From NCBI GenBank assembly GCA_963749085.1, contig CAVVLG010000003.1, positions 219,380 to 283,379 of the forward strand: a DNA stretch of 64,000 nucleotides. Reading direction: 5' to 3'. The DNA is from Candidatus Adlerbacteria bacterium. GTDB taxonomy: Bacteria; Patescibacteriota; Minisyncoccia; Phycocordibacterales; SBAW01. A program made the translations under genes and the position numbers. Positions 19,105 through 59,857 of the stretch are shown here, piece by piece. The stretch's first letter is position 1. Every line of letters starts with the position of its first letter. The notes beneath the pieces are model-generated. The model ran no database searches. It had not been told where the DNA came from and saw nothing but the letters and a program-made list of their open reading frames with translations.

Positions 19105-20025
19105 GTGATGAACTCCCGGTCCTATCTGCCGAGCCCACAATTTACTCTGATAGCGATCTCTGTTGCACTCTCTGCGGGATTGGTAGTGGCCGCAGAATTT
19201 TTTACCCAGTCGCCCCAGCCGCAAGCGCAAATTGCAGTCGATAATTCGCAGGCCGCAAGCGACAACTCAAATTGGCAGGCGGCACTCTATGCCATAGAAG
19301 CCGAAAATGCTTCAACCTCGCTTGCCGTGCCAAGCCCTGACGCGCTCGATCAACTGCTGCAGGCGGCGCAAAGTCCCAATCTCACCGACACTATTGGCCG
19401 CACCCTGTTAATAAACATAAGCAATGCCGAATCGCAGAGCCTTGGGGATGACATCCCCACGCAAGACCAGATCGTCGCGGAGGCGGCGGCGCAAGCAGAG
19501 AATGCGGTGGCAACAACTACGGTGTATGGCTTTTCAGATCTCAACATTGTACCGACATCCAGCGATACGCTTCACGCCTATGGCAATGCCGTTATACAGA
19601 CTCTCAGTGGATACCCCAATGCCAGCGAACAGGCGACGTTTCTCGGGTTAGATGAGATAGTCGAAGGTCACGAGACCGCAGCGTCAAAAGGTCTAGCTGG
19701 TATAGGTGCTGCATACAAAGCCGCAGCAGTGGCTCTCCTCGCCGTTCCGGTGCCACAGACGCTTGCACCGCTCCACCTGGAAGTCATAAACAACTTACTC
19801 AGTACAAGCGCAACGTATGCGGATATGGAAACCATCGGTTCTGACCCGGTGCGCGGTCTTGAGGGATTCCAAACTTACGAATCACTGATGGATAATGGGG
19901 CGAACCTGTTCACAAACATTGCGCAGGAATTGTCCAGCGACGGTATACTTTTTACTAAGGACGAGCCGGGAAGCGCGTGGAGCGTTTTCCTGAACCCGAC
20001 CGGAACGCCGACATCGCCGCAATAA
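19105..20025 (+). CDS. Hypothetical secreted/membrane-anchored protein; first gene of the T4SS-like cluster
   Basis: The N-terminal hydrophobic segment is FTLIAISVALSAGLVVAAEFF. No recognisable domain. Confidence 0.45.
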   Translation: MMNSRSYLPSPQFTLIAISVALSAGLVVAAEFFTQSPQPQAQIAVDNSQAASDNSNWQAALYAIEAENASTSLAVPSPDALDQLLQAAQSPNLTDTIGRTLLINISNAESQSLGDDIPTQDQIVAEAAAQAENAVATTTVYGFSDLNIVPTSSDTLHAYGNAVIQTLSGYPNASEQATFLGLDEIVEGHETAASKGLAGIGAAYKAAAVALLAVPVPQTLAPLHLEVINNLLSTSATYADMETIGSDPVRGLEGFQTYESLMDNGANLFTNIAQELSSDGILFTKDEPGSAWSVFLNPTGTPTSPQ

Positions 20026-20030
20026 GACAC

Positions 20031-22967
20031 ATGGGTAAAAGAATACTATATATAGTAATCGGAACTTTGCTGGTGTTTGGCATTCTCTTTTTACTGTGGT
20101 CATGGTGGTCGCAGCCTAACCACCCTTCGCAAACTACCGGCACCTTTGGCACTGCAAGCAACAGCACTACGACCAGTAGCAGTTCGGGTCCGCCAGGTAA
20201 CGGCACCATATCACTCGGACAAACAGTCGGTGCAGGAAGCTATAACGCACAAGGCGTCTATGTAGGGCAGGGCAACGGCACGTACGACGCGCAGGGGAAT
20301 TATGTCGGCTATGTCAGCACGCAGAGCAGTACCGAGACATCAAACTCAACTGGAACGGTCGGTGCAGGAAGCTATAACGCACAAGGCGTCTATGTAGGGC
20401 AGGGCAACGGCACGTACGACGCGCAGGGGAATTATGTCGGCTATGTCAGCACGCAGAGCAGTACCGAGACATCAAACTCAACTGGAACGGTCGGTGCAGG
20501 AAGCTATAACGCACAAGGCGTCTATGTAGGGCAGGGCAACGGCACGTACGACGCGCAGGGGAATTATGTAGGTTATGTCGGTACTGTGGGAAGCACGACT
20601 GTGACAAGTGTGCCGGGTGCAATTTGGCTAGGCGGTACTTCTTTTAATCCGACGGGTATAAACAGTGTCAGCAGCGGTGCAAACGGCTTCGTGCCAACGA
20701 TTACGACAACAATCAGCAATAACGGCAGCGGGGCTGTGACGCTTATAGAAGCGCTCGCAGGAACTGCGATAGCGGGAACTTTGACATGCGCAGCACCAAG
20801 CTTAGTCGCAGCAATAGCAGCAGGAGGAACCGCAGTCAGTCTCCCGACCGTGGTCGGAGCAGCTACTGGAGTTACAATAACCACTACGGGAGCAGGACCG
20901 GAGTTTCTTACTAGTGGAATAGCGTCATTTGCAGGTGCTATTCCTGTCAACGATTATATTACTCATAACCAACTAGCGGGTTTGGGCTTGATTCAAGGTG
21001 CCTCTTTTGCTCTCCAAGCAAAAAACTCCGCGCAAGACATCGCATTTACCGGCAACAAAGTCGTCGACTGTTTTCTCAATGTCATCGCCAAAGTAGCCCT
21101 CCAGCAAATAACTGTAAGCGTCGTCAACTGGATAAACTCCGGCTTTAGCGGCCAGCCCGCTTTTGTCAACGACTATCAACAGTTCTTCACCAATGTCGCC
21201 GATGCCGCGGCGGGAGCGTTTATTCAAGGGTCTCCACTCTCATTTCTGTGCAGTCCATTTCAATTACAGATAAAAATAGCCATAGCGCAGGCCTATGCCA
21301 CGCGCGCCGCACAGTCCTGTACCCTGACTAAACTCATTAGCGACATTAATGGCTTTATGAACGGCGCCTTTTCAAGCGGCGGCTGGCCTGGGTTTATTTC
21401 CTTTACCACAGTGCCGACCAACAACCCTTATGGCGCGTTTGCCTATGCCCAAGTAGGTCTCGCGACTGCACAATCGCAGGCGCTTACAAATGCGAAGAAT
21501 AATATATCGCCTACGGGCTTTCTTAACCTCCAAAAGCTCTCGGGTTGTAGCGATCCTACTCAAAACGGCATCTCTGGGTCAGCGAGTATAGGTGTAAACC
21601 CGCAGGCAGCGATAGCAGCAGGAAAGGCCGCCTTGCCGCCCGGTTGCACGGCAACAGTGGTTACACCAGGAAGCGCCATTGCAGCTTCTCTGACTTCGTT
21701 AAATAACGCTCAAATCAATCAGCTCGGAATTGGCAATGACATTGATCAGATAATCACTGCACTCACGACCCAGCTCATGACCCACATAGTTCAAAACGGC
21801 CTCTCGTCGCTCTCGCAGACGACGACACAGACGCCCGCCGATATCGCAGCGGAGTCGCAAGCGACCACGCTGCTTGGTGAAATGCAAACCGAGACGACGC
21901 TCGCACAACAGCTCGGCAGTATATATCAAGGGAGCATCGGCGACATAGAAAGCGCCCAGGAAGATCTGAATTCGCTCGCCAGTTGCTGGGGCAGCGTCGC
22001 TTCCTCAAGCCCCTCAGCCGCGCAAGCGTCTCAAAACGCTTCAAACGCCAGCGAGATACTGCAGTCCCTTAACACACAGATTGATATCCTCAACAACAAT
22101 ATTACGGAGGTGAACAACGAAATAGCGGAACTGAACCAATTCCAGGAGGATGTGTCGTCCGCACAATCAGATGCCGGTGTGGCAAATGCCACGGCCAGTT
22201 ACAACGCAGCCGCCGGCAGCTTCCCCGCGCAGACCGACGTTACTACGGCCCAGCAAAACCGCACCACGGAGCAGGCGCAGCTGGCGACGCTTGAACAGTC
22301 AGTGCAGACGAGCCTTACCCAATGCCAGGCCGGCGGCAATGAGTCTTTCAATCCACCATGGCAAGTTTCAATATTAGTAACAGGAGTCACTCTTACCGAC
22401 ATTGGAGGCCAAGCAGGCAACCTTGCAGCCGGTAACACCGACCAGCTCTCGGCAACAGTGGCACCGTCCGATGCAACTGATGCGACAGTTACCTGGTACT
22501 CCGATACCCCCTCTGTTGCCACCGTCGACGCCAATGGTCTCGTGACTGCGGTCGCTCCGGGAACCGCAAACATTACCGCTGCCTCTACCGACGGGAGCAA
22601 TATAACCTCCAATCCTATTATCGTGACAGTTCCTACTTCTGCGGGCGGTGGTCAATCAGTCCAATCGTCGATACCAGTTGCCAGTATCACTATCACTGAC
22701 ACGGGCGGCAAAGCAGGCAGTCTTCCGATCGGCAGTACCGACCAGCTTTCGGCGACGGTAGCGCCATCTGATGCGACCAACCAGACAGTCACTTGGTCCT
22801 CCGACAACACAGTAGTCGCCGCTGTTTACTCAAATGGTCTCGTCACGGGACTTTCCCCAGGAACGGCCAACATCACCGCAGTTTCTACTGACGGCAGTGA
22901 TATAACATCTAACGCCATGACCGTGACGGTCAGCAACCCGCAGCAAGAAGATGCCGCCACGCAATGA
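20031..22967 (+). CDS. Giant surface protein with an N-terminal TM anchor, 3x 44-aa perfect repeats, a coiled-coil segment and two C-terminal Big_2 domains
   Basis: The TM segment is ILYIVIGTLLVFGILFLLW. The repeat unit is TVGAGSYNAQGVYVGQGNGTYDAQGNYVGYVSTQSSTETSNSTG. The Big_2-like segment is TDQLSATVAPSDATxxTVTWxSDxxxVAxVxxNGLVTxxxPGTANITA, twice. Confidence 0.65.
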   Translation: MGKRILYIVIGTLLVFGILFLLWSWWSQPNHPSQTTGTFGTASNSTTTSSSSGPPGNGTISLGQTVGAGSYNAQGVYVGQGNGTYDAQGNYVGYVSTQSSTETSNSTGTVGAGSYNAQGVYVGQGNGTYDAQGNYVGYVSTQSSTETSNSTGTVGAGSYNAQGVYVGQGNGTYDAQGNYVGYVGTVGSTTVTSVPGAIWLGGTSFNPTGINSVSSGANGFVPTITTTISNNGSGAVTLIEALAGTAIAGTLTCAAPSLVAAIAAGGTAVSLPTVVGAATGVTITTTGAGPEFLTSGIASFAGAIPVNDYITHNQLAGLGLIQGASFALQAKNSAQDIAFTGNKVVDCFLNVIAKVALQQITVSVVNWINSGFSGQPAFVNDYQQFFTNVADAAAGAFIQGSPLSFLCSPFQLQIKIAIAQAYATRAAQSCTLTKLISDINGFMNGAFSSGGWPGFISFTTVPTNNPYGAFAYAQVGLATAQSQALTNAKNNISPTGFLNLQKLSGCSDPTQNGISGSASIGVNPQAAIAAGKAALPPGCTATVVTPGSAIAASLTSLNNAQINQLGIGNDIDQIITALTTQLMTHIVQNGLSSLSQTTTQTPADIAAESQATTLLGEMQTETTLAQQLGSIYQGSIGDIESAQEDLNSLASCWGSVASSSPSAAQASQNASNASEILQSLNTQIDILNNNITEVNNEIAELNQFQEDVSSAQSDAGVANATASYNAAAGSFPAQTDVTTAQQNRTTEQAQLATLEQSVQTSLTQCQAGGNESFNPPWQVSILVTGVTLTDIGGQAGNLAAGNTDQLSATVAPSDATDATVTWYSDTPSVATVDANGLVTAVAPGTANITAASTDGSNITSNPIIVTVPTSAGGGQSVQSSIPVASITITDTGGKAGSLPIGSTDQLSATVAPSDATNQTVTWSSDNTVVAAVYSNGLVTGLSPGTANITAVSTDGSDITSNAMTVTVSNPQQEDAATQ
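20222..20585. repeat. 132-bp tandem repeat, about 2.8 copies; copies are identical at nucleotide level
   Basis: Read directly in the sequence. The period between ACGGTCGGTGCAGGAAGCTATAACGC occurrences is 131-132 bp. Confidence 0.85.
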
Positions 22968-22991
22968 CCGTGACGGTCGTCCAATAATGAT

Positions 22992-25622
22992 ATGAAACGG
23001 ATGTTCACCAAATTTACAACGTATAGCAGCATCATTCTTGTGGTAGTGGCAATTATTTTTGGTACGTTTCAACCCTTAGTGGTGCAGGCACAAAATGCTT
23101 CTGTTAATTGCACAGGCTCCAACAGTGCGAACTGCATTCCCAGTGGGGCAGGTACCACGGCCGGAGCTTCTACCGGTTCTAGTGCGTCAAGCGCTCTTAA
23201 CTGCAATGGTACCAACAGTGCAACATGCCTAAATGGTGGAGAGACTACCGTGCCTACAGCGGCGAACACTCCTGCCATAGCGGCAGCTACACCAACCGCA
23301 GGTACCCCAAGCAGCAAAAATCCTGTAGACAACACTAGCAATATCGGTTGCAATCTATCCACTGCAATTACTTCAGGATTTGGGGGAGCGTTCGCACTGT
23401 GTCTCACTAATGTGGTTTATATTTTCACTGTCGGGATTGGCAGTGGCTTTGCATACGTTTCAGCCTACTTTTTTGACTATGCAATAAGTCTTTCGCTTAA
23501 TAGCGCGGCTTATGGACTCGGTTTTGTATCGCAAGGATGGACAACCGCGCGCGACGTTGCCAACATGGCATTTCTCTTCGTCCTTATCTACATCGCGTTC
23601 CTTATCATGTTCGAAGCCGAAACCAGTGGCACCATACCCTTGCTCACCGCCGTGATTGTGATGGCTCTGATAGTTAATTTCAGCTTTTTCTTCACGAGAC
23701 TTGCCATCGATGCGGGAAACATTCTTTCGATTCAGTTCTACAACGCCATCACTGCGCCCTCTATAGCTTCGAGCGCCCAAAACACGGGTGTCGCCGCGGC
23801 ATCTATTGTTAATACTGCAAACAATGCATTGGGTAGCGCCAGTTTGGGCAACAGCAAAGACCTTACTGCGAGCATCATGGGGATGCTTCAGTTGCAAAAT
23901 CTATTTAGCAACCCGTCATTCAATGCCTTCTTTTCAACTAGTCCAGGCTTCATGGTTACCACTATCGCACTCTCCTTCCTGTATATAGCGGCAGCCATCA
24001 TGTTCTGGCTTCTCACCGTTATGTTCGCCACGGCGGGTATGAAGTTCCTCTTTCGCATCGTGGCGCTATGGTTCCTTATTATCGCTTCGCCCTTGGCTTT
24101 CGTCGCATATGCCATACCGGGCCTAAGACAATATTTTAAGCAGTGGCTCTCGCTGCTCATTGAAAATTCGTTCTATCCGGCCGCCTTCATGTTTATTTTT
24201 CTTATTCTCACTAACTTCTCCAATCAGATGTCGGGCAACAACGGGATTATTAGCGGTATCTTCACAGGCCTGACGCCAGGCACAAACACAGCAAGCGGTG
24301 CGGTGGCACAGATAGGATATGCTGCTGCGAATGTTGGCATTCGGATGGGCTTTGTTATTGCTATCCTCTGGGTCGGGCTTGAAGCATCAAAGCGACTTGG
24401 GGTGATGGGTGGCGAAGCGGCTAATAAGTTTGGCAGTTGGGTAGGAACAGGAGTTCTTAAAGGCTACAACGTCCCGTATAAGTACGTGGGTCCGGGAGCA
24501 TTGGCTGGGTTGGCCGATCGGGGTTTGCAAAAGACTAAATTTGGCAATTCGCTCCTCGGTTATGAATTGCGCCGATATGTTACAAAACCTCTCGCCGGTA
24601 CTACCATACCCGGCAGTCATGGAGAATCGTATACGCAACTAATAGAGCGTCAGAGAAAAGAAAGTTCTGAAAAAAAGGCAAATCTGCGTGATATAGAAAC
24701 TAAGAAAATAATCCAGCCGCTTCCTGATGTGGAGAAATCATTGCAGCCGCTTGCAGAGAAAGCAGAACTTAAAAAACTGAATGAGCAGGAAGAACTTAAG
24801 AGATTGCATGCCGCAGAAGTCGCTCATGCAGCTGGCACTGGACCGGCGCTCACCAGAGCTGAGTCGGATCGAAAGACCTATCTAGAGAGCAAGGGTCTGT
24901 CCGATATCAGTGCAAGCCAGGACGCAAGGAGATTAGCTCTTGTGGGTAGAGGGGTGACACCAATAACTGCGACCGAAGAAGATAAGAAAAAAACTCTTGA
25001 TGCAAAAAAATCGAACATAGACACGCGTCTTAAGTCATTGAGCGAGCGCGAAATCGGAGAAATCGGTGCGAAAAACATCAAGCCATATGTTCATGCGTTC
25101 AGCGAAAACCAAATAAAGACAATGAAAAATATCAAGACATTCACCGATGCTCAAAAAGAAGACCTCGAAATGACCTGGCAAGAAAAAGGCGCTGCTGCAC
25201 CGCTTAAGAAAGCTGATGACATCACTGATAAATTGGCCCAAATCGATACGGACCTTAGAGTCGTCGGGAAAGGACTAAAACCTGGAGGTGGAGACCTTAA
25301 GGGTGTCGAGATCATGCAATTAAACACGGCGAACACCACCAAATCTTCGGTAACAAAATCCGGGGATCTCATTACCAAGGACAAACTTGAAGCTGCCCTT
25401 AAATCCATAGGGAACGAGACTGAGAGGGTCAGGGGGGAACGTGACTCGCTAGGGCGCGGTGTGGGTACTGCACCTGCAAGAACGTTCTACGGCCAGCAGC
25501 TGAAGGACTTGCAAGATGCAAAGAAACAGGTCGAGGATCTAAAAGATAAAATGAAAGAGATTTCACCTAAAGTAAGCAGAGCCTCCGAGGGCGCGGGCAC
25601 TTTAACAGTAAGAGATAGGTAG
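22992..25622 (+). CDS. Polytopic membrane protein (about 7 TM) with Cys-pair N-terminal repeats and a charged coiled-coil C-terminus; VirB6/TrbL-like candidate
   Basis: There are multiple long hydrophobic helices, for example VANMAFLFVLIYIAFLIMF and FMVTTIALSFLYIAAAIMFWLLTVMF. Its position is next to PrgI and VirB4 genes. The assignment rests on topology only. Confidence 0.45.
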   Translation: MKRMFTKFTTYSSIILVVVAIIFGTFQPLVVQAQNASVNCTGSNSANCIPSGAGTTAGASTGSSASSALNCNGTNSATCLNGGETTVPTAANTPAIAAATPTAGTPSSKNPVDNTSNIGCNLSTAITSGFGGAFALCLTNVVYIFTVGIGSGFAYVSAYFFDYAISLSLNSAAYGLGFVSQGWTTARDVANMAFLFVLIYIAFLIMFEAETSGTIPLLTAVIVMALIVNFSFFFTRLAIDAGNILSIQFYNAITAPSIASSAQNTGVAAASIVNTANNALGSASLGNSKDLTASIMGMLQLQNLFSNPSFNAFFSTSPGFMVTTIALSFLYIAAAIMFWLLTVMFATAGMKFLFRIVALWFLIIASPLAFVAYAIPGLRQYFKQWLSLLIENSFYPAAFMFIFLILTNFSNQMSGNNGIISGIFTGLTPGTNTASGAVAQIGYAAANVGIRMGFVIAILWVGLEASKRLGVMGGEAANKFGSWVGTGVLKGYNVPYKYVGPGALAGLADRGLQKTKFGNSLLGYELRRYVTKPLAGTTIPGSHGESYTQLIERQRKESSEKKANLRDIETKKIIQPLPDVEKSLQPLAEKAELKKLNEQEELKRLHAAEVAHAAGTGPALTRAESDRKTYLESKGLSDISASQDARRLALVGRGVTPITATEEDKKKTLDAKKSNIDTRLKSLSEREIGEIGAKNIKPYVHAFSENQIKTMKNIKTFTDAQKEDLEMTWQEKGAAAPLKKADDITDKLAQIDTDLRVVGKGLKPGGGDLKGVEIMQLNTANTTKSSVTKSGDLITKDKLEAALKSIGNETERVRGERDSLGRGVGTAPARTFYGQQLKDLQDAKKQVEDLKDKMKEISPKVSRASEGAGTLTVRDR

Positions 25623-25635
25623 TATACTACACGCT

Positions 25636-26292
25636 ATGGAGAGAAGAAACTACTCGGCAGAAGAAATACAAAAGAAATTTGATTCGCTTCCTGAGGAGAT
25701 AAAAGCGCTTCTTTACAGTCCCGAGATGATGGATGTTATTAAAAAAGTTGGGGAAAAACACCAGCTTCATATAGACCAACTCGATTTGTTGGAGAACGAT
25801 ACTGCTCAGGTGATGCTTGGATTCATTCAGACAAAGGACTACCCTGTGGCGCTGATGGACAGTCTTAATGTCACGCAGATAAAAGCCGACATGATTGCTC
25901 AAGATATGAACGATATGCTGTTCGTTAAAATTCGTGACTCAATGAAGAAAACAGATATGCCGGTCATTATGCCCTCAAATAAATCCGCCTCGACTCCACA
26001 ACCTATCAGCACAGTCCCGACGCCAACGACACATATGGTTTCAGCTGCCATGCCTATGCCAAAGCCAGCTTTTCCTGTTTCCTCTATTCCAATACAACCT
26101 CCCACTGCGGCAACGCAGATTATCTCCGTGCCCATGCAAACGGCAGATGTGATGCTCACCAAAACAACCGTGAGCATGGCGAAAAAAATTGAGGGTCCGC
26201 CCGTGCAAAATACTCCTCCTTCCGCCACCAAGATAGAGATACCCACACCGGGACCCTACAAAACCGATCCCTACCGCGAACCGCCAGAGTGA
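25636..26292 (+). CDS. Hypothetical Pro/Thr-rich protein
   Basis: ORF with a low-complexity Pro-rich C-terminal half. It lies inside the T4SS-like cluster. Confidence 0.4.
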   Translation: MERRNYSAEEIQKKFDSLPEEIKALLYSPEMMDVIKKVGEKHQLHIDQLDLLENDTAQVMLGFIQTKDYPVALMDSLNVTQIKADMIAQDMNDMLFVKIRDSMKKTDMPVIMPSNKSASTPQPISTVPTPTTHMVSAAMPMPKPAFPVSSIPIQPPTAATQIISVPMQTADVMLTKTTVSMAKKIEGPPVQNTPPSATKIEIPTPGPYKTDPYREPPE

Positions 26293-26487
26293 ACCCTCAT
26301 TGTATTACCAATGCGATTTTTTCTTCGCTTTCCTCGCGCGGACAGCTATAGAGCTAATGGGAAAATTTACATTTTGCATTCATATGCCTCGCGCTTCGGC
26401 TCAAAAAAGGCCATTTCCACATGTATGAAGGAAGCACCTCACTAAAAGTCTCAGATCTGGCGCTTTTTCGCGCTATACTATTAGGCA

Positions 26488-26937
26488 ATGGCGCGGTATC
26501 AAGTTCCTCAATTTATCGAGGTTGAAGATAAAATATTCGGACCGTTGACATTCAAGCAATTCGTCTATATTGCTGGCGGCGGAGGGCTGTGTCTTGTTTT
26601 TTTTACGCTTCTACCGCTTTACATCGCCATTATCTTCATGATCCCTGTGGCGGCCTTTGCACTGGCACTCGCGTTCTATAAGGTTAACGGTCGGCCGTTC
26701 ATTGTAGTGGTGGAGCATGCTGTTGGGTATTTTTTCGGCCATAAGCTCTATTTGTGGAAACAAAGAAGCCAACAGGCTACAAACAGCAAAAAACCCTTAC
26801 CCAATATCTCTGTAGCAAACCAGCTGGTACCAAAACTTTCGCAAAGCAAGCTCAAGGATCTCTCTTGGTCGCTCAATATAAAGGATCGCGCCAAGATGGG
26901 CCTGGTTGACTCGGAGCGCACTGGATTTGAAATTTAG
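26488..26937 (+). CDS. PrgI-family (VirB3-like) small membrane protein
   Basis: The N-terminus MARYQVPQFIEVEDKIFGPLTFKQFVYIAGGGG followed by two TM helices is typical of PrgI/VirB3-like proteins that precede VirB4 in Gram-positive T4SSs. Confidence 0.65.
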   Translation: MARYQVPQFIEVEDKIFGPLTFKQFVYIAGGGGLCLVFFTLLPLYIAIIFMIPVAAFALALAFYKVNGRPFIVVVEHAVGYFFGHKLYLWKQRSQQATNSKKPLPNISVANQLVPKLSQSKLKDLSWSLNIKDRAKMGLVDSERTGFEI

Positions 26938-26941
26938 AAGT

Positions 26942-27607
26942 ATGCCAAACACAAAAGTAAAAGCGCAGGCGACCCAGGAATTCGTGCCCATCAAAGAGGT
27001 GCGCGAGGGTATTGTGATACTCAAAGACGGAAGCCTGCGCGCACTCCTTATGGCTTCTTCCATAAATCTCGCGCTCAAAGGAGCCGACGAGCAGCAGGCG
27101 ATTATCGGACAGTTCCAGAATTTTCTCAATTCGTTGGAATTTACTACACAATTCTTCATTGAATCGCGAGATCTCGATATCCGTCCCTACATCGCCCTTC
27201 TTGAGGAGCGTTTGGCCGCCGAGCTCGACGATCTGATGAAAATTCAGATACGCGAATACATTTCATTCATCAAGGATTTTACCGAACGCGCGAACATTAT
27301 GTCGAAAAATTTCTTTATCGTCGTCCCGTACGATCCGGCCTTCATCGCACGCGGCGGAGGTATACGAGGAACAGTTACTTCATTTTTGCCTACAAAAGGC
27401 GGCGGGAATTCCGTACTTACCGATGAGCAGTTTGAGGAATATCGCACCCAGCTGGAGCAGCGCATTTCAGTTATTGAACAGGGACTGGTGCGCACCGGCG
27501 TACGCGTTGTCAACCTCGGCACGGAGGAGGTTATAGAATTATTCTACAAACTCTTCAATCCGGGCGAGCTGGAGAAGCCCCTGCAAGTCACGCAAATCGC
27601 CAAATAA
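26942..27607 (+). CDS. Stand-alone protein resembling the N-terminal (TraC/TrbE/CagE-type) domain of VirB4
   Basis: The segment FVPIKEVREGIVILKDGSLRALLMASSINLALKGADEQQAII resembles the N-terminus of the downstream VirB4 (LPEQIYKEGVLELQDVIAPSALKITPREINLGDKIARTFFV). It ends 2 nt before the VirB4 start, in a different frame. Confidence 0.5.
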   Translation: MPNTKVKAQATQEFVPIKEVREGIVILKDGSLRALLMASSINLALKGADEQQAIIGQFQNFLNSLEFTTQFFIESRDLDIRPYIALLEERLAAELDDLMKIQIREYISFIKDFTERANIMSKNFFIVVPYDPAFIARGGGIRGTVTSFLPTKGGGNSVLTDEQFEEYRTQLEQRISVIEQGLVRTGVRVVNLGTEEVIELFYKLFNPGELEKPLQVTQIAK

Positions 27608-27609
27608 CT

Positions 27610-29454
27610 ATGGCAATCCTTGATTTTTTAAAAACAAAAAAGTCCTCGCCGCTTACGCCAGTCGCACCTATTTTGCCGGAGCAAATATATAAAGAGGGGG
27701 TACTAGAACTCCAAGACGTCATCGCGCCCTCGGCTCTCAAAATAACACCACGTGAGATAAACCTCGGCGATAAAATCGCGCGCACGTTCTTCGTCATGTC
27801 TTATCCGCGTATCCTCACCGACTCGTGGTTCTCTCCCGTCATTAATCTCGACCGCGTGCTTGATGTGTCCATCTTTATCCACCCGCTAGACTCCGCCGAG
27901 GTCCTCAAAAAATTCCAAAAAAAGGTCGCCGAGGTACAGAGCCAGATTATGGTACGGGAAGAAAAAGGCCTCGTGCGCGACCCGATGCTTGATACCGCCT
28001 ATCAGGATCTCGAGCAGCTACGCGACAACCTCCAACAGGCGCAAGAGAAACTGTTCGACGTCGGCGTCTATATCACCATTTACGGCGCTTCGACGGAGGA
28101 GCTCGACAAGGCCGAGTCGGAAATAAAATCGATGCTTGAGTCGCGATTGATTTACGTCAAACCAGCGCTTTTCCAGCAGGAGCAGGGTTTCAAAAGTGTG
28201 CTCCCCATAGGGCTCGACGAACTTGCTGTCAACTCGAAGTTGAATTCCTCTCCGCTCTCTTCCATTTTCCCGTTCGTGTCCTTCGATCTGACGTCAGATA
28301 AGGGCATACTCTACGGCGTCAATCGTCATAACGCCTCACTCGTTCTCTTTGATCGTTTCAGCTTGGAAAACTACAACTCAGTTATATTCGCAAAGTCGGG
28401 TTCTGGCAAATCCTACGCCACAAAACTCGAGATCTTACGCACGCTTATGTTCGACACGGAAGTCATTGTTATCGATCCGGAGCGCGAATACGAGTTTCTG
28501 GCGCAAACCGTCGGCGGCCGTTATTTCAACATCAGCCTCAACTCTGAACACCATATCAATCCCTTCGATTTAGCCCCTCCTCGTGAGGACGAAAGTGCCT
28601 CGGACGTGCTTCGAAGTAACATTGTTGCGCTGGTTGGAATGTTCCGGATCATGCTCGGGGGACTCACCCCTGAAGAAGACGCAATAATTGATCGCGCCAT
28701 CACTGAAACCTATGCGCTCAAAGATATCACCGTCGATAGTAATTTTGCTGATATAGAACCTCCGCTGCTGTCGGACTTCGAACTAGTCTTGGCTGGCATG
28801 CAGGGCTCGGAGTCCTTGGTGCAGCGGCTCAGCAAATACACCAAGGGCACCTGGTCGGGGTTCATCAACGAGCCGACCAATGTCGATATCAACAAAAAAT
28901 TCGTGGTGTTCTCGGTGCGCGACATGGAGGACGATCTCAAACCGGTCGCGATGTACCTCATCACCCATTATATCTGGAACGCCGTTCGTAAAACGCTGAA
29001 AAAACGCCTGCTGGTCATCGATGAGGCGTGGTGGATGATGAAATCGGATGACACGGCGTCGTTTCTCTACAGCATGGCTAAGCGCGGCCGCAAATACTTC
29101 TTGGGGCTCGCGACCATCACTCAGGATGTTGATGACTTCTTGAAGTCGCCCTACGGGCTCCCGATGATAACCAACTCTTCGATTCAAATTCTGCTGAAAC
29201 AATCGCCGACCACTATTGATAATCTACAAAAAACTTTCAATCTTTCGGACGAGGAGAAATATCTTCTACTGGAGTCAGATGTGGGAGAGGGTATTTTCTT
29301 TGCTGGGCTCAAACACGTAGCTATTAAAGTCATTGCCTCCTATACCGAGGACCAGATCATCACCTCCGACCCTTCCCAAGTGCTGGCGTTGCGCAAGCAG
29401 CGCGCTGAAGCAAGCGAGACACCAGCTGCGCCTGCGGGAAGCGCGATACAATAA
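27610..29454 (+). CDS. VirB4/TraC/TrbE-family type IV secretion ATPase (DUF87/AAA-like)
   Basis: Walker A is FAKSGSGKSYAT. Walker B is LLVIDEAWWMM. Length is 614 aa. It follows the PrgI-like gene. Confidence 0.8.
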   Translation: MAILDFLKTKKSSPLTPVAPILPEQIYKEGVLELQDVIAPSALKITPREINLGDKIARTFFVMSYPRILTDSWFSPVINLDRVLDVSIFIHPLDSAEVLKKFQKKVAEVQSQIMVREEKGLVRDPMLDTAYQDLEQLRDNLQQAQEKLFDVGVYITIYGASTEELDKAESEIKSMLESRLIYVKPALFQQEQGFKSVLPIGLDELAVNSKLNSSPLSSIFPFVSFDLTSDKGILYGVNRHNASLVLFDRFSLENYNSVIFAKSGSGKSYATKLEILRTLMFDTEVIVIDPEREYEFLAQTVGGRYFNISLNSEHHINPFDLAPPREDESASDVLRSNIVALVGMFRIMLGGLTPEEDAIIDRAITETYALKDITVDSNFADIEPPLLSDFELVLAGMQGSESLVQRLSKYTKGTWSGFINEPTNVDINKKFVVFSVRDMEDDLKPVAMYLITHYIWNAVRKTLKKRLLVIDEAWWMMKSDDTASFLYSMAKRGRKYFLGLATITQDVDDFLKSPYGLPMITNSSIQILLKQSPTTIDNLQKTFNLSDEEKYLLLESDVGEGIFFAGLKHVAIKVIASYTEDQIITSDPSQVLALRKQRAEASETPAAPAGSAIQ

Positions 29455-29458
29455 CTAT

Positions 29459-30019
29459 ATGAAGTTGCACTACATTTTTTTTCTTCTGGTAGCTATTTTC
29501 ATAACTGGACTTGCCGACGGCATAACGTGGGCTCTGGCACCTATACCCGGTATTGGATTTGTACTTGGCATTGCGATAGCTTTCTGCATCAACATAACCA
29601 TGGGCGTAGGGTTTCTTATGCCTCTGCTAGCTCTCAGTGATATGTACCACCCGCGCATAAGCCCTTTCGGCATTATCGCGGGACTCATACCTGGTGTTAA
29701 CGTGTTGCCTTTCTGGGTTGGGCTCGTCATCGCGGGCATTATCTATAAAACAAACGCGGAGGGCAAATCACTCGGTGGCGTTACCGGCACGGCATTCAAA
29801 CTTCAATCCATATATCAATCAGGAGGAAATCCTATTTCTAAAATGCGTGAAGCCGGTTCAGCGACACGGAACTCTCGCCGAGATCTCGATCGACCCGAGG
29901 TTCCCCGACCGGCTGATGCCGGCGAAGAGCGGCAAAGTATACGCACACTGCAAAATCTAAAATCTCCCCGTATGAATGAAGATATACGATCACCACAAGC
30001 TCATGCACAAACTGCATAA
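29459..30019 (+). CDS. Small 4-TM membrane protein, hypothetical
   Basis: The hydrophobic helices are HYIFFLLVAIFITGL, GIGFVLGIAIAFCINITMGVGFLMPLLAL, FGIIAGLIPGV and FWVGLVIAGIIY. Confidence 0.45.
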   Translation: MKLHYIFFLLVAIFITGLADGITWALAPIPGIGFVLGIAIAFCINITMGVGFLMPLLALSDMYHPRISPFGIIAGLIPGVNVLPFWVGLVIAGIIYKTNAEGKSLGGVTGTAFKLQSIYQSGGNPISKMREAGSATRNSRRDLDRPEVPRPADAGEERQSIRTLQNLKSPRMNEDIRSPQAHAQTA

Positions 30020-31043
30020 AGAAATACTCGTTTGTGTGCTCATCGCTTTTTTTGCTTTCGCGGGCGTAACTCATGCGCAGTCGACCGACGGAGTGCCTCC
30101 TCCGGTGCAATATAACGTGGCGCCCGAAACGCCAGGACCAGATACACCGGTTACCATTACGGTTCAGGGGGTTGGCACTTTTTTGGGCAATTCAAATGTT
30201 ATCTGGTCGCAAGACGGTGCAGTCGTTTCCTCAGGTGTCGGAGACAGCAGTTATTCCTTCACTACGGGGGCGCTCGGGCAAGTAACGACCATACATGTGG
30301 AAATAGACTCCGCCACAGAAGGCACCATAACGCAGGACTTCACTATTAATCCTTCGTTGGTTGACTTAGTGTGGGAGGCCGATACCAGTGCTCCTCCTTT
30401 TTATAGAGGCAAACCGCTTTATAGCGCGGGCTCAGGACTTAAAGTAGTTGCCTTTCCAATAGTGATCTCAAATGGCACTCGGGTTGCTGCATCAAGCCTC
30501 TCGTACCAATGGACGCGAGATAGTGTACCCCAGGCGGCAGCTTCCGGACTTGGAGAAAACACGTTCTCTTTTACGGGCGACCAATTGCAAACGGGGGAAG
30601 ATGTTGAGGTTGACATTTATCTTGGCAATACGCTGGTAGGCCAGGGTGAAGTCGTGATTCCGAGTTCATCTCCTCAAGTGGTGCTCTATGATCAAGACCC
30701 TCTGCGCGGTACGTTATACGATGAAGCGTTGCCGAGTGCGATATCGCTCGACACTAAAGAGTTAACCGTGCAGGCGGTGCCGTACTATTTTTCAAACACG
30801 AGCATAAGCGACGGCGCACTCTCTTATAGCTGGACGCTTAACGGCAACACCATAACCGGCCCTGAATCCGCGCAGGGGATACTGACCCTACTGCAAACGG
30901 GAAGTGGAACGGGCGCGGCGAATCTCGCCGTATCGGTGCAGAACAATGATCCTGATAAATTGGTACAAGCGGCAAGTGCGGCGCTCCAAATTGTATTCGG
31001 GCAATCAACAGGTTCTAGCCCTTCATCATTCTTTGGACCATGA
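29976..31043 (+). CDS. Hypothetical secreted protein (signal peptide)
   Basis: The signal-like N-terminus is ILVCVLIAFFAFAGVTHAQ. No recognisable domain. Confidence 0.45.
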   Translation: MKIYDHHKLMHKLHKEILVCVLIAFFAFAGVTHAQSTDGVPPPVQYNVAPETPGPDTPVTITVQGVGTFLGNSNVIWSQDGAVVSSGVGDSSYSFTTGALGQVTTIHVEIDSATEGTITQDFTINPSLVDLVWEADTSAPPFYRGKPLYSAGSGLKVVAFPIVISNGTRVAASSLSYQWTRDSVPQAAASGLGENTFSFTGDQLQTGEDVEVDIYLGNTLVGQGEVVIPSSSPQVVLYDQDPLRGTLYDEALPSAISLDTKELTVQAVPYYFSNTSISDGALSYSWTLNGNTITGPESAQGILTLLQTGSGTGAANLAVSVQNNDPDKLVQAASAALQIVFGQSTGSSPSSFFGP

Positions 31044-31978
31044 AAAAACTGCTTTTAAATGCGGGGTTGTTCTCTCTTTTGTTTTCCATAGGTATGCTCG
31101 TTCCCGTCGTGCATGCACAGGTCGGCGGTATACCTGAATATACAGGTAGCCCTCCCTCGACATCGGCGCCAAATTATAATTGTCCTTCCGGTCAGACCTA
31201 TTCATCAACTGGTAGTAATGGGTCAGGTGGGTGTGTTGCCTTACCTACGACAGCAAACCCAGCTGGCACACCAACTAACGGTTCTAATCTCACTTATACC
31301 CCCCTTGAACCGATACCAGGTGCAACCACAAATGCAAACGGAACCGCGCTTAGTTTTCCGGCGCTGATAAATAGTATGTTTACCGTTCTCTTTACTGTAG
31401 GAGCACTGTTTGCGGTGCTTATGCTCACAATAAGTGGCATACGGTATATGCTCTCGGATGTCGTCATTAATAAAGAGAGAGCAATAAAACGTATTACAGC
31501 CTGTATCTACGGCCTACTCCTCTTAGCTGGCACGTGGCTCATACTGAACACCATAAACCCACAGCTACTTAATTTTACACTCATTCCGTGTCCACAGGGA
31601 AGTACCGGATGTACGATCACGGGTGCACCACCGACAAATACAACGCCTCCACCAAATCCTTATTCTTCTATTTCATTTCAACAGGCGGTACAAAACGAGC
31701 AGACGGTTCAAAACGCAATTACAGATAATACCGACGCGCAAAATGCACAGACATACGACCAATCTAACTGTGCTTCTATCGCCCAGCAACAAACTGCGCT
31801 CGTCCAAACGGCAAGTGCTCCCCCAGCGGGGGGTGGTCAGGGCTGTGTCATTAACGTAAGTGGGATGTTCGGGAGTGTAGGCAACACCCAATGCCTCTCT
31901 TATAGAGTACAGTATCAATCATTTTGCGACCAACTCGCAGAATGCCAGTCGGATGGGAACGGTACTTATAATTGTTGA
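31040..31978 (+). CDS. Candidate T4SS pilin-like protein (VirB2/TrbC-like topology) with a signal peptide, a Pro/Thr-rich spacer, two adjacent TM helices and a Cys-rich C-terminus
   Basis: The signal peptide is MKKLLLNAGLFSLLFSIGMLVPVVHAQ. The paired helices are FTVLFTVGALFAVLMLTISGIRYML and ITACIYGLLLLAGTWLILNTI. The assignment rests on topology and genomic context only. Confidence 0.4.
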   Translation: MKKLLLNAGLFSLLFSIGMLVPVVHAQVGGIPEYTGSPPSTSAPNYNCPSGQTYSSTGSNGSGGCVALPTTANPAGTPTNGSNLTYTPLEPIPGATTNANGTALSFPALINSMFTVLFTVGALFAVLMLTISGIRYMLSDVVINKERAIKRITACIYGLLLLAGTWLILNTINPQLLNFTLIPCPQGSTGCTITGAPPTNTTPPPNPYSSISFQQAVQNEQTVQNAITDNTDAQNAQTYDQSNCASIAQQQTALVQTASAPPAGGGQGCVINVSGMFGSVGNTQCLSYRVQYQSFCDQLAECQSDGNGTYNC

Positions 31979-31987
31979 TTTAATAAA

Positions 31988-33226
31988 ATGAAAAACACTT
32001 TTACACTACTATTTAGTGCCGTAATAATTTTACTTTTGATATTCCTTGCAATTTGGTTTTTCTTTTTCCGACCATCTGCGCCGGGGCAAACTACACCTAC
32101 CTCTTCTTTCGGCACAGCAGCAAATAATTCAACGACGGTTACGAGCAACACCTCTTCAAACTCAACCCAGTCGACCAATGTGCCGTTAACGCAATCTGCC
32201 GCACAAAAGATATTTGAAATTGCGACAGGTCCAGTGGTCGGCGCAACGCTGATACAGACGCTCGACCCTACGACCACCCTCGCGCGATACATAGATGCAG
32301 ATGATGGTCATGTGTATGACTTGCCGCTCGATGTTCCCGGTGCCATACCGCAGGTCGTCTCCGATACGACCATCCCTGGCGGTGTGGACGCTATCTGGGT
32401 AGACGACGGCAATGCGGTAGTCATGCAGTACCTCGATACTAGCGATGCGGTAAAAACGCTATATATGAACTTCCAAGTTACAACCTCGAGTTCTTCTTCA
32501 CTTGAGGCGACCAAAATACTATTTTTGCCAAACAATATCATCGGCATCGCTGCCTCTCCTGACGGCAAGGACGTCGTATATCTGCTCCAAACCGCAAGCG
32601 GCTCTGACGGCTATACCGCAAAGGCAGACGGCACCGGTGCCAAAAAACTATTTTCTCTCCCACTCTCGCAGATGATTATTTCTTGGCCTTCGAAGGGTAC
32701 CCTCTTGGCGTATACCAAATCGGCTGCAGGCGTACCCGGTATTGTGTTTGCAATCGACGTTAAAAGTGGAAACGTGACGCCGCTTGTGTATGCCGACGGT
32801 ATCACTGCGACGGCTGACCCGACATTTGCGAATGTCATTTATCAGGTGGTATTAAGTGATGGGTCTGCGCCGATTACCTACATTCACAACGTTAGCACTG
32901 GACTTAATCAGGCTGCCGATTTCAATCCTGCCCCTGAAAGATGTATCTGGAGTGAAATTGTCACCTCATTTATGTACTGCGCTATTTCGACCGTAGATAC
33001 GCAATCAAATTTCCTCGACTTGTGGCATCAAGGCGAAACTGGCGGAGGGGATGCTATCTTTTCTTTTGACGTCTCTAAGAATACTGACAATCTCGTTGCA
33101 GCTCTTTCGAACAGTATGGGGTCAAGCGATATTTCAGAAATGGCACTCTCGCCCGATGAGCACTATCTCGACTTCGTGACCAAAGGCGACCGAACGCTGT
33201 GGGGTGTGCGCCTTACACAACCGTAG
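31988..33226 (+). CDS. N-terminally anchored extracytoplasmic protein, probably a beta-propeller (TolB/WD40-like) fold
   Basis: The TM segment is FTLLFSAVIILLLIFLAIWFFFF. Repeated SPDGK/SPDE blade-like motifs are present. Confidence 0.4.
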   Translation: MKNTFTLLFSAVIILLLIFLAIWFFFFRPSAPGQTTPTSSFGTAANNSTTVTSNTSSNSTQSTNVPLTQSAAQKIFEIATGPVVGATLIQTLDPTTTLARYIDADDGHVYDLPLDVPGAIPQVVSDTTIPGGVDAIWVDDGNAVVMQYLDTSDAVKTLYMNFQVTTSSSSSLEATKILFLPNNIIGIAASPDGKDVVYLLQTASGSDGYTAKADGTGAKKLFSLPLSQMIISWPSKGTLLAYTKSAAGVPGIVFAIDVKSGNVTPLVYADGITATADPTFANVIYQVVLSDGSAPITYIHNVSTGLNQAADFNPAPERCIWSEIVTSFMYCAISTVDTQSNFLDLWHQGETGGGDAIFSFDVSKNTDNLVAALSNSMGSSDISEMALSPDEHYLDFVTKGDRTLWGVRLTQP

Positions 33227-34910: not shown

Positions 34911-35171
34911 CTACCCGTATAGTTCGGAGTGAGTTCCAATTTTTATAAAAAGCACGATGTCCTGTCTTATTGGTTCATAGATAGCCCGAAAATTCCCGGT
35001 TATATTGATGCTTCGATAACCTGCATACGCTCCATGCAGTGCATGGTTATCAAGAAGCGGATGAAACGGATTTTTGAGAAATAAATCTCGGCGTTCTTGG
35101 AATTGTTCTTTAATCTTCTTTGGCAACTTGTCAAATCGCTTTACAAAACGATCGTCAAGAATTATTTTCAT
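34911..35171 (-). CDS. Type II toxin, RelE/YafQ-family mRNA interferase
   Basis: Length is 86 aa. The motifs DNHALHGAYAGYRSINITGNFRAIY are present. It overlaps the upstream antitoxin ORF by 4 nt. Confidence 0.65.
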   Translation of the reverse strand: MKIILDDRFVKRFDKLPKKIKEQFQERRDLFLKNPFHPLLDNHALHGAYAGYRSINITGNFRAIYEPIRQDIVLFIKIGTHSELYG

Positions 35172-35449
35172 GCACGCCGATTAAGCCACGCGTCCATCTC
35201 TTTACCGGAAGAAAATGCTGGAGAAACGTTTTTTCCTTTCCGGAAATCTGCGCTCGCTTTGCGGAGTTCCCGTCCGGTCTTGGCATTAGGTATTTCTCTG
35301 CGCACGATGCCGATACCATACTCTCCTTCCGCAAACTTTTCCGTCGCCATTTTGAGAAAGGAAGCAAAAGGGACGCCTTCCCGCTTGGCTCGCTTCATCG
35401 CTTTAGCCTTAATCTTCGGATCGATGTTAAATACAATTTGGGTGGTCAT
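35168..35449 (-). CDS. Type II antitoxin, RelB/DinJ-like (RHH)
   Basis: Length is 93 aa. The N-terminus IVFNIDPKIKAKAMKRAKREGVPFASFLK is RHH-like. It sits immediately upstream of the RelE-like toxin. Confidence 0.6.
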   Translation of the reverse strand: MTTQIVFNIDPKIKAKAMKRAKREGVPFASFLKMATEKFAEGEYGIGIVRREIPNAKTGRELRKASADFRKGKNVSPAFSSGKEMDAWLNRRA

Positions 35450-35539
35450 ATATATAGCTTATACATAGCTCAGATATATGTCAACTTCCACCGCAGCCTG
35501 GGCAAGCCCCCCTGTACTGTGTGCAAGGTGTCCCGCTGT

Positions 35540-35779
35540 CTATAAATTTTTATAGGTACCCTCGTTGCGTAGCCCTATGTGATCAATGATAAGCACCTGG
35601 TGCTCGTAATGAAAGACTATTCTGAGACGACCCTTCCGAACGCGGAATTTTTCATGGCCAGAAAGCCTGACAACATTGAGACTGTGAAAGTTTCTCGTCA
35701 GCAATCTCTCAACCATTTCTTCCAACTGGGCGCGCTGTTTCTTATTTAACTTTCGAAGAAGTTTTTCGTGCTCGTTCAT
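35540..35779 (-). CDS. Type II toxin, RelE/ParE family
   Basis: Length is 79 aa. The segment FRVRKGRLRIVFHYEHQVLIIDHIGLR has the typical RelE/ParE C-terminal pattern. It overlaps the upstream antitoxin. Confidence 0.65.
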   Translation of the reverse strand: MNEHEKLLRKLNKKQRAQLEEMVERLLTRNFHSLNVVRLSGHEKFRVRKGRLRIVFHYEHQVLIIDHIGLRNEGTYKNL

Positions 35780-36032: not shown

Positions 36033-36169
36033 AAGTTTATCCTCAGATGAACTTTGAGTCAAATCGTCCTGTCAAATGTGGTTTATACACACGTTCTCCA
36101 CACCTTATGCACAAAACTGCAAATTTTGACTCGGGGAGAAGAGACGGGTATCCTTGGTTACGACTCGCC

Positions 36170-58441: not shown

Positions 58442-58519
58442 GGGCAGGCAAATTACGGGTAACGCCCTGTGCCTTTAGTCTACAACGGTATTTTTGAGAT
58501 TGGTTCTAGGGTCAAATAT

Positions 58520-59851: not shown

Positions 59852-59857
59852 CACGTG

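Follow-up and report, generated by a model that had tools for sequence, protein, structure and literature searches.

A quarter of bacterial diversity lives at the expense of other cells, and the T4SS of Patescibacteria counts among the small number of machines thought to account for this. It has been described in two studies (Wang 2023, PMC10633639; Quinonero-Coronel 2025, PMC12102498). Across 2,400 Patescibacteria genomes, the same component set as reported here lies in proximity to dnaA, dnaN, ksgA, rnpA and rpmH and is accompanied by no relaxase (PMC12102498). In Southlakia epibionticum, a requirement of the T4SS for epibiotic growth is known from Tn-seq (PMC10633639), with both the T4SS and its pilins being essential and comEC dispensable (PMC10633639; PMC12857230), and a cultivated member of the Minisyncoccota that feeds on host RNA forms tubular structures towards the host (bioRxiv 10.64898/2026.06.21.733656). 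The monoderm MPF-FATA systems include the trs genes of pGO1/pSK41 (TrsC-TrsD-TrsE), the tra genes of pIP501, the prg genes of pCF10 and the Clostridioides CTn elements.

The cluster analysed here, from an ultra-small bacterium of Parcubacteria/Paceibacteria type, is the Patescibacteria T4SS already described in those two studies. Since publications of 2023-2025 already cover this system together with its gene order and location, it is a further example of a known machine, and the window (the whole 64-kb stretch of DNA that was analysed) leaves the published picture unchanged as one more instance of a known locus. Composition, distribution and origin-proximal site are in print (PMC12102498) and the system is essential in a Saccharibacterium (PMC10633639), so the preliminary description of this DNA was mistaken in calling the composition essentially uncharacterised. 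Its core reading, a chromosomal T4SS or pilus-like apparatus of a small-genome episymbiont lineage, is borne out by the HMM, fold and synteny evidence. We put at roughly 0.85 the probability that the cluster is the chromosomal, origin-proximal T4SS of Patescibacteria, of MPF-FATA descent, with DNA-processing parts lost or never had, and serving as a conduit between epibiont and host. To the published picture the analysis adds fold-level confirmation of VirB6 in a locus of Parcubacteria type, an explicit account of TrsD and VirB4 as tiles of one long VirB4, and a list of accessory families syntenic with virB4.

Layout, genomic setting and conservation

Eleven co-directional ORFs, numbered g1 to g11, fill positions 19105-33226 of the window on the forward strand (Table 1), all of them intact. 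As first described, they are tightly packed, with intergenic spacers of -17 to +24 bp and a sole exception in the 195-bp gap between g4 and g5 (26293-26487). The starts listed are the likely true ones, and a Logan contig with an identical VirB4 gave the same genes when its genes were called independently. Five genes encode T4SS core parts (g3, g5, g6, g7 and g10), while the remaining six (g1, g2, g4, g8, g9 and g11) encode surface proteins or proteins without assigned function.

Table 1 Genes of the cluster, with positions in the window
Gene	Position	Strand	Product	Basis
g1	19108..20025	+	305-aa protein, N-terminal membrane anchor and exported domain	TM segment at residues 14-32
g2	20031..22967	+	978-aa surface protein	Two C-terminal Big_2 domains
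g3	22992..25622	+	Extended VirB6-like polytopic membrane protein	Fold similarity to VirB6
g4	25636..26292	+	218-aa soluble protein	No TM segment
g5	26488..26937	+	PrgI/VirB3-like small membrane protein	PF12666
g6	26942..27607	+	TrsD/TraD-like protein	NF041427, NF045975, NF045971 profile matches
g7	27610..29454	+	VirB4 ATPase, sole ATPase of the cluster	NF045971, P-loop_TraG, 4AG5
g8	29459..30019	+	186-aa polytopic membrane protein, disordered tail	3 or more TM segments
g9	30003..31043	+	~346-aa secreted protein, tandem Ig-like beta-sandwich repeats	Signal-like segment; alternative start 29976
g10	31040..31978	+	VirB2-like T4SS pilin	PF18895
g11	31988..33226	+	Membrane-anchored TolB-like beta-propeller protein	TM segment at residues 7-25

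The cluster is flanked by pcrA-ksgA on one side and by jag-yidC-rnpA-rpmH-dnaA-dnaN on the other, and the flanking genes are housekeeping genes (UvrD/PcrA, KsgA, Jag, YidC, L34, DnaA and DnaN). The upstream neighbour ksgA lies 48 bp from the cluster, and downstream the block closes with g11, whose 3′ end overlaps that of the convergent jag. This position beside dnaA, dnaN, ksgA, rnpA and rpmH is a mark of the Patescibacteria-clade T4SS, known from Paceibacteria and Microgenomatia, and DnaA-box-like sites are clustered at 36037-36113. No break in GC content is visible over the block (0.46-0.54, compared to 0.47-0.57 across the window). A promoter and terminator scan of 18.0-36.2 kb gave a result no better than shuffled sequence, and an Rfam scan returned tRNAs only, none of them inside the cluster.

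For comparison with relatives, the best 80 of more than 583 VirB4 relatives in GTDB species genomes were used, all of which belong to Patescibacteria and share 76-93% identity with g7. The order pcrA-ksgA-g1-g2-VirB6-g4-PrgI-TrsD-VirB4-(g8)-g9-pilin-g11-jag-yidC-dnaA is kept in these 80 species genomes, so that synteny in relatives, proposed earlier as a check, was found. VirB4 identity exceeded that of DnaA in 53/53 loci, DnaN in 52/52, YidC in 63/63 and KsgA in 41/41, in loci chosen by VirB4 similarity, which inflates VirB4 identity relative to its neighbours. The variable presence expected of a mobile element was not seen, as flanks and order were constant in the 80 species genomes. Synteny in 80 other genomes speaks strongly against a chance arrangement of the cluster, and the kept order together with a VirB4 that outconserves DnaA indicates a vertically inherited chromosomal machine and not an ICE remnant.

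What marks the Patescibacteria-clade T4SS is present at this locus: an MPF-FATA VirB4 whose best 80 relatives are all patescibacterial, TrsD adjacent to virB4, and PrgI/VirB3, VirB6 and a PF18895 VirB2-like pilin near it, with no relaxase or T4CP beside virB4. The order VirB6-x-VirB3-TrsD-VirB4-x-VirB2 is identical to that of the Paceibacteria locus RAAC4_OD1_1. The locus differs from the clade in having no peptidase or lysozyme directly downstream of virB4, and from Southlakia epibionticum (SEML1_0006-0019) in having one pilin, with long Cys-rich extensions, compared to an array of six divergent pilins.

Core components and missing parts

The g7 protein matched NF045971 (CD1110 family) at 3.6e-116, with 389 bits against an NCBIfam cut-off of 325, and P-loop_TraG at 2.4e-27. 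Its best solved relative is PDB 4AG5 (9e-42), with a further match to TrwK (8e-8), and both the Walker A motif (AKSGSGKS, residue 261) and the Walker B motif (LLVIDE, residue 467) are intact. Judged from these profile matches, the VirB4 is of the monoderm MPF-FATA kind. Directly upstream of virB4, g6 was detected in 78/80 loci with a median identity of 61%. It matched NF045975 at 8e-9 and NF041427 (TrsD) at 4.9e-8, the latter under the curated cut-off, and a precomputed PF26593 TraC-like match is on record. The NF045971 profile is tiled by the two genes, g6 covering positions 2-114 and g7 positions 185-733. Since they tile separate stretches of one long VirB4 profile, the pair represents a TrsD-TrsE split of the pGO1 type, and g6 is the counterpart of the N-terminal-most stretch of long VirB4 proteins in monoderms. 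A duplicated VirB4 N-domain had also been considered for g6 and was ruled out, as g6 and g7 showed no similarity to each other in pairwise BLASTP. The earlier pairing of a full VirB4 with a stand-alone copy of its N-domain is therefore right as to the VirB4 ATPase, which NF045971 supports, and wrong as to both "full" and the N-domain copy.

The g5 protein, detected in 76/80 loci, matched PF12666 at 4.4e-11, with 43.6 bits against a Pfam gathering score of 27. In g3, a signal peptide and a Cys-rich N-terminal part are followed by ~7-8 TM helices and a charged-residue-rich tail of ~400 aa. Its VirB6 score fell under the curated HMM cut-off and its family profile gave no match to PDB sequences; the resemblance to VirB6 was revealed by fold comparison alone. 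The g10 pilin matched PF18895 (T4SS_pilin) at 1.4e-8, with 35.1 bits against a gathering score of 26.6, and weakly matched the Mbov_0395 pilin-like family. After the signal peptide and an N-terminal extension come a two-helix hairpin (residues ~107-172, TM segments at 113-131 and 152-170) and then a Cys-rich C-terminal tail of 140 aa; the protein has 11 Cys in all, and at 312 aa including this tail it is atypically large for a VirB2 pilin. The hairpin is the conserved part and was found in 50-54/80 loci. These results agree with the preliminary description, which had named a PrgI(VirB3)-like gene, a 7-TM VirB6/TrbL-like gene and a VirB2-like two-helix pilin with a Cys-rich tail; all three, examined by HMM and structure as it had proposed, resemble T4SS parts.

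Several parts of other T4SSs were looked for as well. Among the scanned ORFs of the window there was no VirD4/T4CP, relaxase or VirB11-type gene, and the only PF00437 ATPase, encoded at 45605-47287 on the reverse strand, was of PilB type (560 aa, with an MshEN domain). The absence of VirD4, relaxase and VirB11 noted earlier thus stands for the scanned ORFs, with "no VirD4" applying to these 64 kb. No Pfam or NCBIfam match to VirB7, VirB8, VirB9 (CagX) or VirB10 (TrbI) was obtained in the 11 cluster proteins, and no VirB8-like or VirB1-like part was recognised in the cluster. Compared to the minimised diderm VirB/D4 systems that serve as structural reference (R388 Trw and Agrobacterium VirB), no VirB1, VirB5, VirB7-11 or VirD4 is recognisable here, and the envelope is monoderm.

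The likeness to MPF-FATA systems lies in the CD1110-family VirB4, in a VirB3 of PrgI/TrsC type and a TrsD of its own that precede VirB4, arranged as in those systems, and in the lack of an outer-membrane core (VirB7, 9 and 10). The locus differs from them in that no relaxase, T4CP or VirB1-type hydrolase (TrsG/PrgK) was found, no VirB8-like protein (PrgL/TraM) or PrgB-type adhesin is recognisable, a VirB2-like pilin absent from Gram-positive systems is present, and the locus is not on a mobile element. The relaxase and the VirD4/TcpA-type coupling protein that mark conjugative MPF-FATA systems on ICEs or plasmids were not found in the window. With no relaxase or T4CP nearby, housekeeping flanks and synteny in 80 genomes, we concur with the earlier view that this is not a typical conjugative element.

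Accessory and surface genes

Folds were assigned through family profiles for g9 and g11. The g9 family profile matched the Ig-like domains of phage T4 Hoc (4e-5), and a subset of family members gave weak BiPBP_C, Ig_3 and PKD matches. Lying directly downstream of virB4 in 78/80 loci, g9 is the best-conserved accessory gene. The g11 family profile matched the TolB beta-propeller (3.5e-5), in accordance with the beta-propeller proposed earlier; PD40 repeats occur in 4 family members, and g11 was detected in 64-66/80 loci.

In g2, an N-terminal TM anchor is followed by G/S/T-rich 44-aa repeats (a 132-bp x2.7 tandem repeat at 20222-20579), a conserved core at ~340-600, a helical bundle or coiled coil, and the two Big_2 domains (Pfam, 3.9e-30), which matches the earlier call of a surface protein with Big_2 domains and coiled coils. 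The core is kept in 36-39/80 loci, and the more than 308 homologues are all unnamed and without Pfam domains. In an AF2 model built from a 121-sequence alignment, the helical bundle alone was confident and the most conserved segment had a pLDDT of 35-70. A Foldseek search of this model against the PDB gave only generic helical-bundle or coiled-coil matches (best E 0.18), and no fold was assigned.

In the soluble g4 protein, a P/T-rich linker follows a helical N-terminal domain, and the C-terminal part carries an invariant DPYRE motif, whose D211, Y213 and E215 do not vary in the family alignment. Pfam gave no match for g4 or its family members, nor did its family profile against PDB sequences. 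It lies between VirB6 and PrgI in 51-58/80 loci, and the same slot is filled, also without assignment, in the published RAAC4_OD1_1 locus. The first gene after ksgA, g1, was detectable at the same position in 23-27/80 relatives. It had no match in Pfam or NCBIfam and its family profile none among PDB sequences, and a VirB8-like role for it therefore stays a guess. No family match was found for g8 in Pfam or NCBIfam. Its slot is variable: in roughly half of the relatives it holds small, unrelated ORFs and in the others nothing, and the ORFs in the slot of 37 loci shared no common family and included no PF18895 pilin.

The families of g1, the g2 core, g4, the triple Ig-like g9 and g11 are conserved across Parcubacteria-type relatives and none is named in PMC12102498. 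It is possible, although we would not bet on it, that they are lineage-specific structural parts, maybe replacing VirB8, VirB1 or adhesin functions, and that with the disulfide-rich-tailed pilin g10 they make up a T4SS architecture unseen elsewhere, importing host nucleic acids or other macromolecules. The accessory families keep their synteny with virB4 no less strictly than the core parts do. Structural or genetic work could reasonably be aimed at them.

Proposed working and alternative readings

By analogy with the R388 T4SS structure, VirB4 would be the single motor, lengthened by g6 (TrsD-like) and held at the membrane by PrgI/VirB3, with the VirB6-like g3 as a likely membrane platform. 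The VirB2-like pilin, presumably Sec-exported, would be pulled out of the membrane to polymerise as a pilus or tube. To our knowledge, there is no monoderm T4SS with demonstrated pilus formation, and we infer pilus assembly here, as we do the accessory-protein roles and the cargo with its direction. The g1, g2, g9 and g11 proteins could belong to the envelope or the cell surface, crossing the wall or attaching to the host cell. The apparatus as a whole would form a contact or conduit between epibiont and host cell, needed for host-dependent growth and not for conjugation. Cargo would most likely move inwards, in the form of host macromolecules, for instance nucleic acids; the chief alternative is effector export.

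An effector translocator of this latter kind, injecting proteins or toxins into the host bacterium to subvert or permeabilise it, on the pattern of the T4CP-less Brucella VirB and Bordetella Ptl systems, is unlikely but deserves serious attention. Protein-exporting T4SSs without a T4CP are known, both the authors of the Southlakia study (PMC10633639) and a PNAS perspective (PMC11665869) deem such a role plausible, and the soluble, conserved g4 with its invariant C-terminal motif offers a possible secretion or docking signal. However, none of the domains in the cluster is a candidate for an effector or toxin, and a monoderm cell does not have a periplasmic loading step of the Ptl kind.

The preliminary description had favoured a ComB-type DNA-uptake or cell-cell contact apparatus, and a ComB/Ced-like DNA import machine for natural transformation appears improbable to us. 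Like Helicobacter pylori ComB, the locus is a chromosomal T4SS without T4CP, relaxase or VirB11 and may have an import role; its VirB4 weakly matches the archaeal DNA importer CedB (5.7e-10), and Patescibacteria, being without nucleotide synthesis, must import precursors. ComB, however, is a diderm system of MPF-T type in which ComB7-10 are present and DNA is passed to ComEC. None of those parts is found here, the VirB7-VirB10 (ComB7-ComB10) core having no counterpart in the 11 proteins, and the ancestry points to monoderm MPF-FATA systems. In Southlakia, moreover, deletion of comEC abolishes transformation and leaves viability intact, while the T4SS is essential independently of ComEC (PMC10633639; PMC12857230), indicating that the T4SS is neither sufficient for transformation nor acting through ComEC. 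The ComB-type label is therefore not retained. A possible uptake of nucleic acids as nutrients is a separate matter from transformation and belongs to the best explanation.

Still more doubtful is a working T4SS for conjugation or DNA export that draws on a relaxase and a coupling protein from other parts of the genome, or on divergent ones that escape recognition. T4CP genes are often distant from virB4, T4CP-like genes are present far from virB4 in related Paceibacteria genomes, and the 64 kb inspected leave room for a T4CP or relaxase outside them. Relaxases, however, occur in only 103/3,035 Patescibacteria genomes and near virB4 in 15 cases (PMC12102498), the T4CP homologue of Southlakia is non-essential whereas its T4SS genes are essential, and a chromosomal, origin-adjacent, universally conserved locus is unlike the behaviour of conjugative elements.

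Least credible of all and largely refuted is a decayed ICE or plasmid remnant that has lost relaxase, coupling protein and hydrolase and is otherwise pseudogenising. In its favour, the VirB4 family takes its name from a protein of a Clostridioides conjugative transposon, pGO1 and pIP501 share the order PrgI-TrsD-VirB4, and recombinases of the tyrosine (5617-6588) and serine (58469-59851) types lie in the window, but the intact ORFs and Walker motifs, the constant order between housekeeping genes, the conservation of VirB4 above DnaA and the even GC content all speak against it, and both recombinases lie outside the syntenic block, 13 and 25 kb away.

The gene block and its core components

Eleven long ORFs, all on the + strand, fill positions 19105-33226 of the window (see table), as the preliminary description of co-directional, packed genes had it. 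With gene starts chosen to come after the preceding gene's stop codon, neighbouring genes are separated by -17 to +24 bp, the sole exception being the 195 bp between g4 and g5. Genes called independently on a public contig with an identical VirB4 are the same ones, and the GC content of the block is no different from that of the remainder of the window.

Judged from its sequence, g7 is a VirB4 ATPase, matching NCBIfam NF045971 (CD1110 family) at 3.6e-116 and 389 bits (curated cut-off 325) and Pfam P-loop_TraG at 2.4e-27, with the monoderm VirB4 domain 4AG5 as its closest solved structure (9e-42), followed by R388 TrwK, and with both Walker motifs intact (A, AKSGSGKS at residue 261; B, LLVIDE at residue 467). 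The PrgI/VirB3-like g5 matched PF12666 at 4.4e-11 and the VirB2-like pilin g10 matched PF18895 at 1.4e-8, each exceeding the gathering score. g10 carries a signal peptide and, at about residues 107-172, a two-helix hairpin; of its 11 cysteines, the majority lie within the 140-aa C-terminal tail. These VirB4, PrgI and pilin matches above cut-offs support the earlier reading of a type IV secretion system (T4SS) or pilus-like apparatus. g6, which matched the TrsD/TraD family at 4.9e-8, had been taken for a stand-alone copy of the VirB4 N-domain beside a full VirB4. Instead, g6 aligns to the CD1110 VirB4 profile over its first 114 positions and g7 over positions 185-733, and no pairwise similarity was found between the two, which rules out a second copy and indicates that each corresponds to a different stretch of one long monoderm VirB4, the arrangement of TrsD-TrsE in pGO1. 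For the set of VirB2, VirB3, VirB4 (with TrsD) and VirB6, both identity and integrity are established.

Positions of the cluster genes and other features in the window
Feature	Position	Strand	Remarks
g1	19108-20025	+	
g2	20031-22967	+	
g2 132-bp tandem array	20222-20579		2.7 copies, 98% identity
g3	22992-25622	+	VirB6 position in gene order
g4	25636-26292	+	
g4 DPYRE motif	26266-26280		residues 211-215
g5	26488-26937	+	PrgI/VirB3-like
g6	26942-27607	+	TrsD/TraD-like
g7	27610-29454	+	VirB4 ATPase
g8	29459-30019	+	
g9	30003-31043	+	Ig-like repeats
g10	31040-31978	+	VirB2-like pilin
g11	31988-33226	+	TolB-like beta-propeller
Second Big_2 surface protein	6740-8341	-	PG_binding_1 domain; outside cluster
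PNPase	10004-12202	+	
LysM-LysM-Peptidase_M23 protein	14428-15519	-	3.6 kb upstream of cluster
YafQ/ParE toxin	34911-35171	-	partner ORF 35168-35449
Weak Phd/YefM-like match	35742-36062	-	partner ORF 35540-35779
DnaA-box-like 9-mers (four)	36037-36113		
dnaA	36047-37513		
PilB-type ATPase	45605-47287	-	560 aa; PF00437 (T2SSE), MshEN
IS4/5 transposase fragments	57669-58441	-	
Large serine recombinase	58469-59851		
Two N6/N4 DNA methyltransferases	60705-62730		
HTH transposase-like ORF	62720-63154		

Conservation and chromosomal setting

The locus is chromosomal and adjoins the replication origin, with UvrD/PcrA helicase and KsgA genes upstream and, downstream, jag, yidC, rnpA, rpmH, two toxin-antitoxin-like pairs, DnaA-box-like sites, dnaA and dnaN. 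The two pairs lie on the - strand between rpmH and dnaA (34911-36113 region), and, given where the DnaA-box-like 9-mers lie, the Met at 36170, rather than 36047, is the probable start of dnaA. A patch that looks mobile occupies 57669-63154 at the 3' end of the window.

More than 583 VirB4 relatives were found in GTDB species genomes, the best 80 of which, 76-93% identical, are all from Patescibacteria (with labels such as Nomura-, Adler-, Kaiser-, Campbell- or Taylorbacteria and Paceibacterota). The order pcrA-ksgA-g1-g2-VirB6-g4-PrgI-TrsD-VirB4-(g8)-g9-pilin-g11-jag-yidC-dnaA-dnaN recurs in these 80 loci, with TrsD and g9 each present in 78, PrgI in 76, g11 in 66 and VirB6 in 59, counts held down by contig ends and divergence. 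In every locus where both were comparable, VirB4 identity exceeded that of DnaA, DnaN, YidC and KsgA (median of 79% for VirB4; DnaA 54-55%, DnaN about 40%, YidC 36%, KsgA 49%), with the caveat that the loci were themselves selected by VirB4 similarity. TrsD (about 61%) and PrgI (51%) are also high, while the envelope parts VirB6, g9 and g11 reach only 25-31%. These data show strong purifying selection and a non-mobile context. A recently acquired or decaying integrated conjugative element is excluded by the housekeeping flanks, the 80-locus synteny and the VirB4 conservation.

Relation to described systems and proposed working

The cluster, earlier regarded as essentially uncharacterised, belongs to a system that has been described before. 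An unusual T4SS, Gram-positive-like, with predicted pilins and without recognisable coupling or relaxase proteins, was reported from the Saccharibacterium Southlakia epibionticum by Wang et al. 2023 (PMC10633639). In their 2025 survey of 3,035 Patescibacteria genomes (PMC12102498), Quinonero-Coronel et al. placed the VirB4 proteins as a Patescibacteria clade nested within MPF-FATA, accompanied by TrsD, PrgI/VirB3, VirB6 and PF18895 pilins, and located the locus in Paceibacteria and Microgenomatia near dnaA, dnaN, ksgA, rnpA and rpmH. The order in the Paceibacteria genome RAAC4_OD1_1, VirB6(531)-x-VirB3(533)-TrsD(534)-VirB4(535)-x-VirB2(537) (PMC12102498, Table S3), exactly matches that of the window cluster. 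According to a 2025 review, the Patescibacteria systems are the latest addition to the T4SS superfamily.

Among the window ORFs scanned, no VirD4/TcpA-type coupling protein, relaxase, VirB11 or VirB1 homologue was found. The reported lack of VirD4 holds for these 64 kb and is no proof that the genome lacks it, since RAAC4_OD1_1 has distant T4CP-like (coupling protein) genes elsewhere (PMC12102498, Table S3). Relaxases are rare across the surveyed Patescibacteria (PMC12102498), and conjugation is an unlikely function of the cluster. The single PF00437 ATPase, 12 kb off, points by its PilB type and MshEN domain to type IV pili. The suggested analogy to ComB requires correction, as no VirB8, VirB9 or VirB10 homologue was found among the window ORFs scanned. 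Epibiotic growth of Southlakia requires the T4SS and comEC is dispensable (PMC10633639); ComEC-linked transformation is likewise improbable as the function here. Since some Patescibacteria VirB1 homologues bear Peptidase_M23 and LysM domains (PMC12102498), the LysM-LysM-Peptidase_M23 protein on the opposite strand may be the wall hydrolase that the cluster itself lacks.

On the model of the R388 structure, VirB4, docked by VirB3 onto a VirB6 platform, would build a filament or tube from polymerised pilin, with g1, g2, g9 and g11 perhaps crossing the wall or binding to the host. The apparatus may take up host macromolecules or export effectors; the function of these systems is called 'completely unknown' in PMC11665869. 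A 2026 preprint describes a cultivated Minisyncoccota that feeds on host RNA, with tubular structures at the contact interface that may be T4SS pili, and proposes that PNPase, also encoded in the window, converts host RNA to nucleotides in this lineage.

Accessory families

The unnamed conserved accessory families are the sole part going beyond published work. g2 consists of an N-terminal anchor, 44-aa repeats specified by the 132-bp tandem array, a conserved core, a helical bundle confidently modelled in the predicted structure, and two Big_2 domains. Relatives keep the core and bundle and no other part, and the repeats and Big_2 pair are lineage-specific add-ons. Homologues of the core number more than 308, all unnamed and with no Pfam domain, and no fold could be assigned from the predicted model or structure comparison. 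The repeat units are G/Y/Q/S-rich and lie in the surface-exposed N-terminal region.

The g9 family profile matched phage T4 Hoc (4e-5), some members giving weak Ig, PKD or BiPBP_C matches, and g9 is a secreted protein built of tandem Ig-like repeats. g11, whose family profile matched TolB at 3.5e-5, is anchored in the membrane. Family and profile searches detected no relatives with known function for g1, g4 or g8. The soluble g4 ends C-terminally in an invariant DPYRE motif, possibly a signal for docking or secretion; the motif follows a P/T-rich linker and stands out in a family that otherwise evolves fast. About half of the related loci have no ORF in the g8 slot between virB4 and g9. Where filled, the slot holds unrelated small membrane ORFs, and relatives of the window's own g8 were detected in only 5-7 of the 80 loci.
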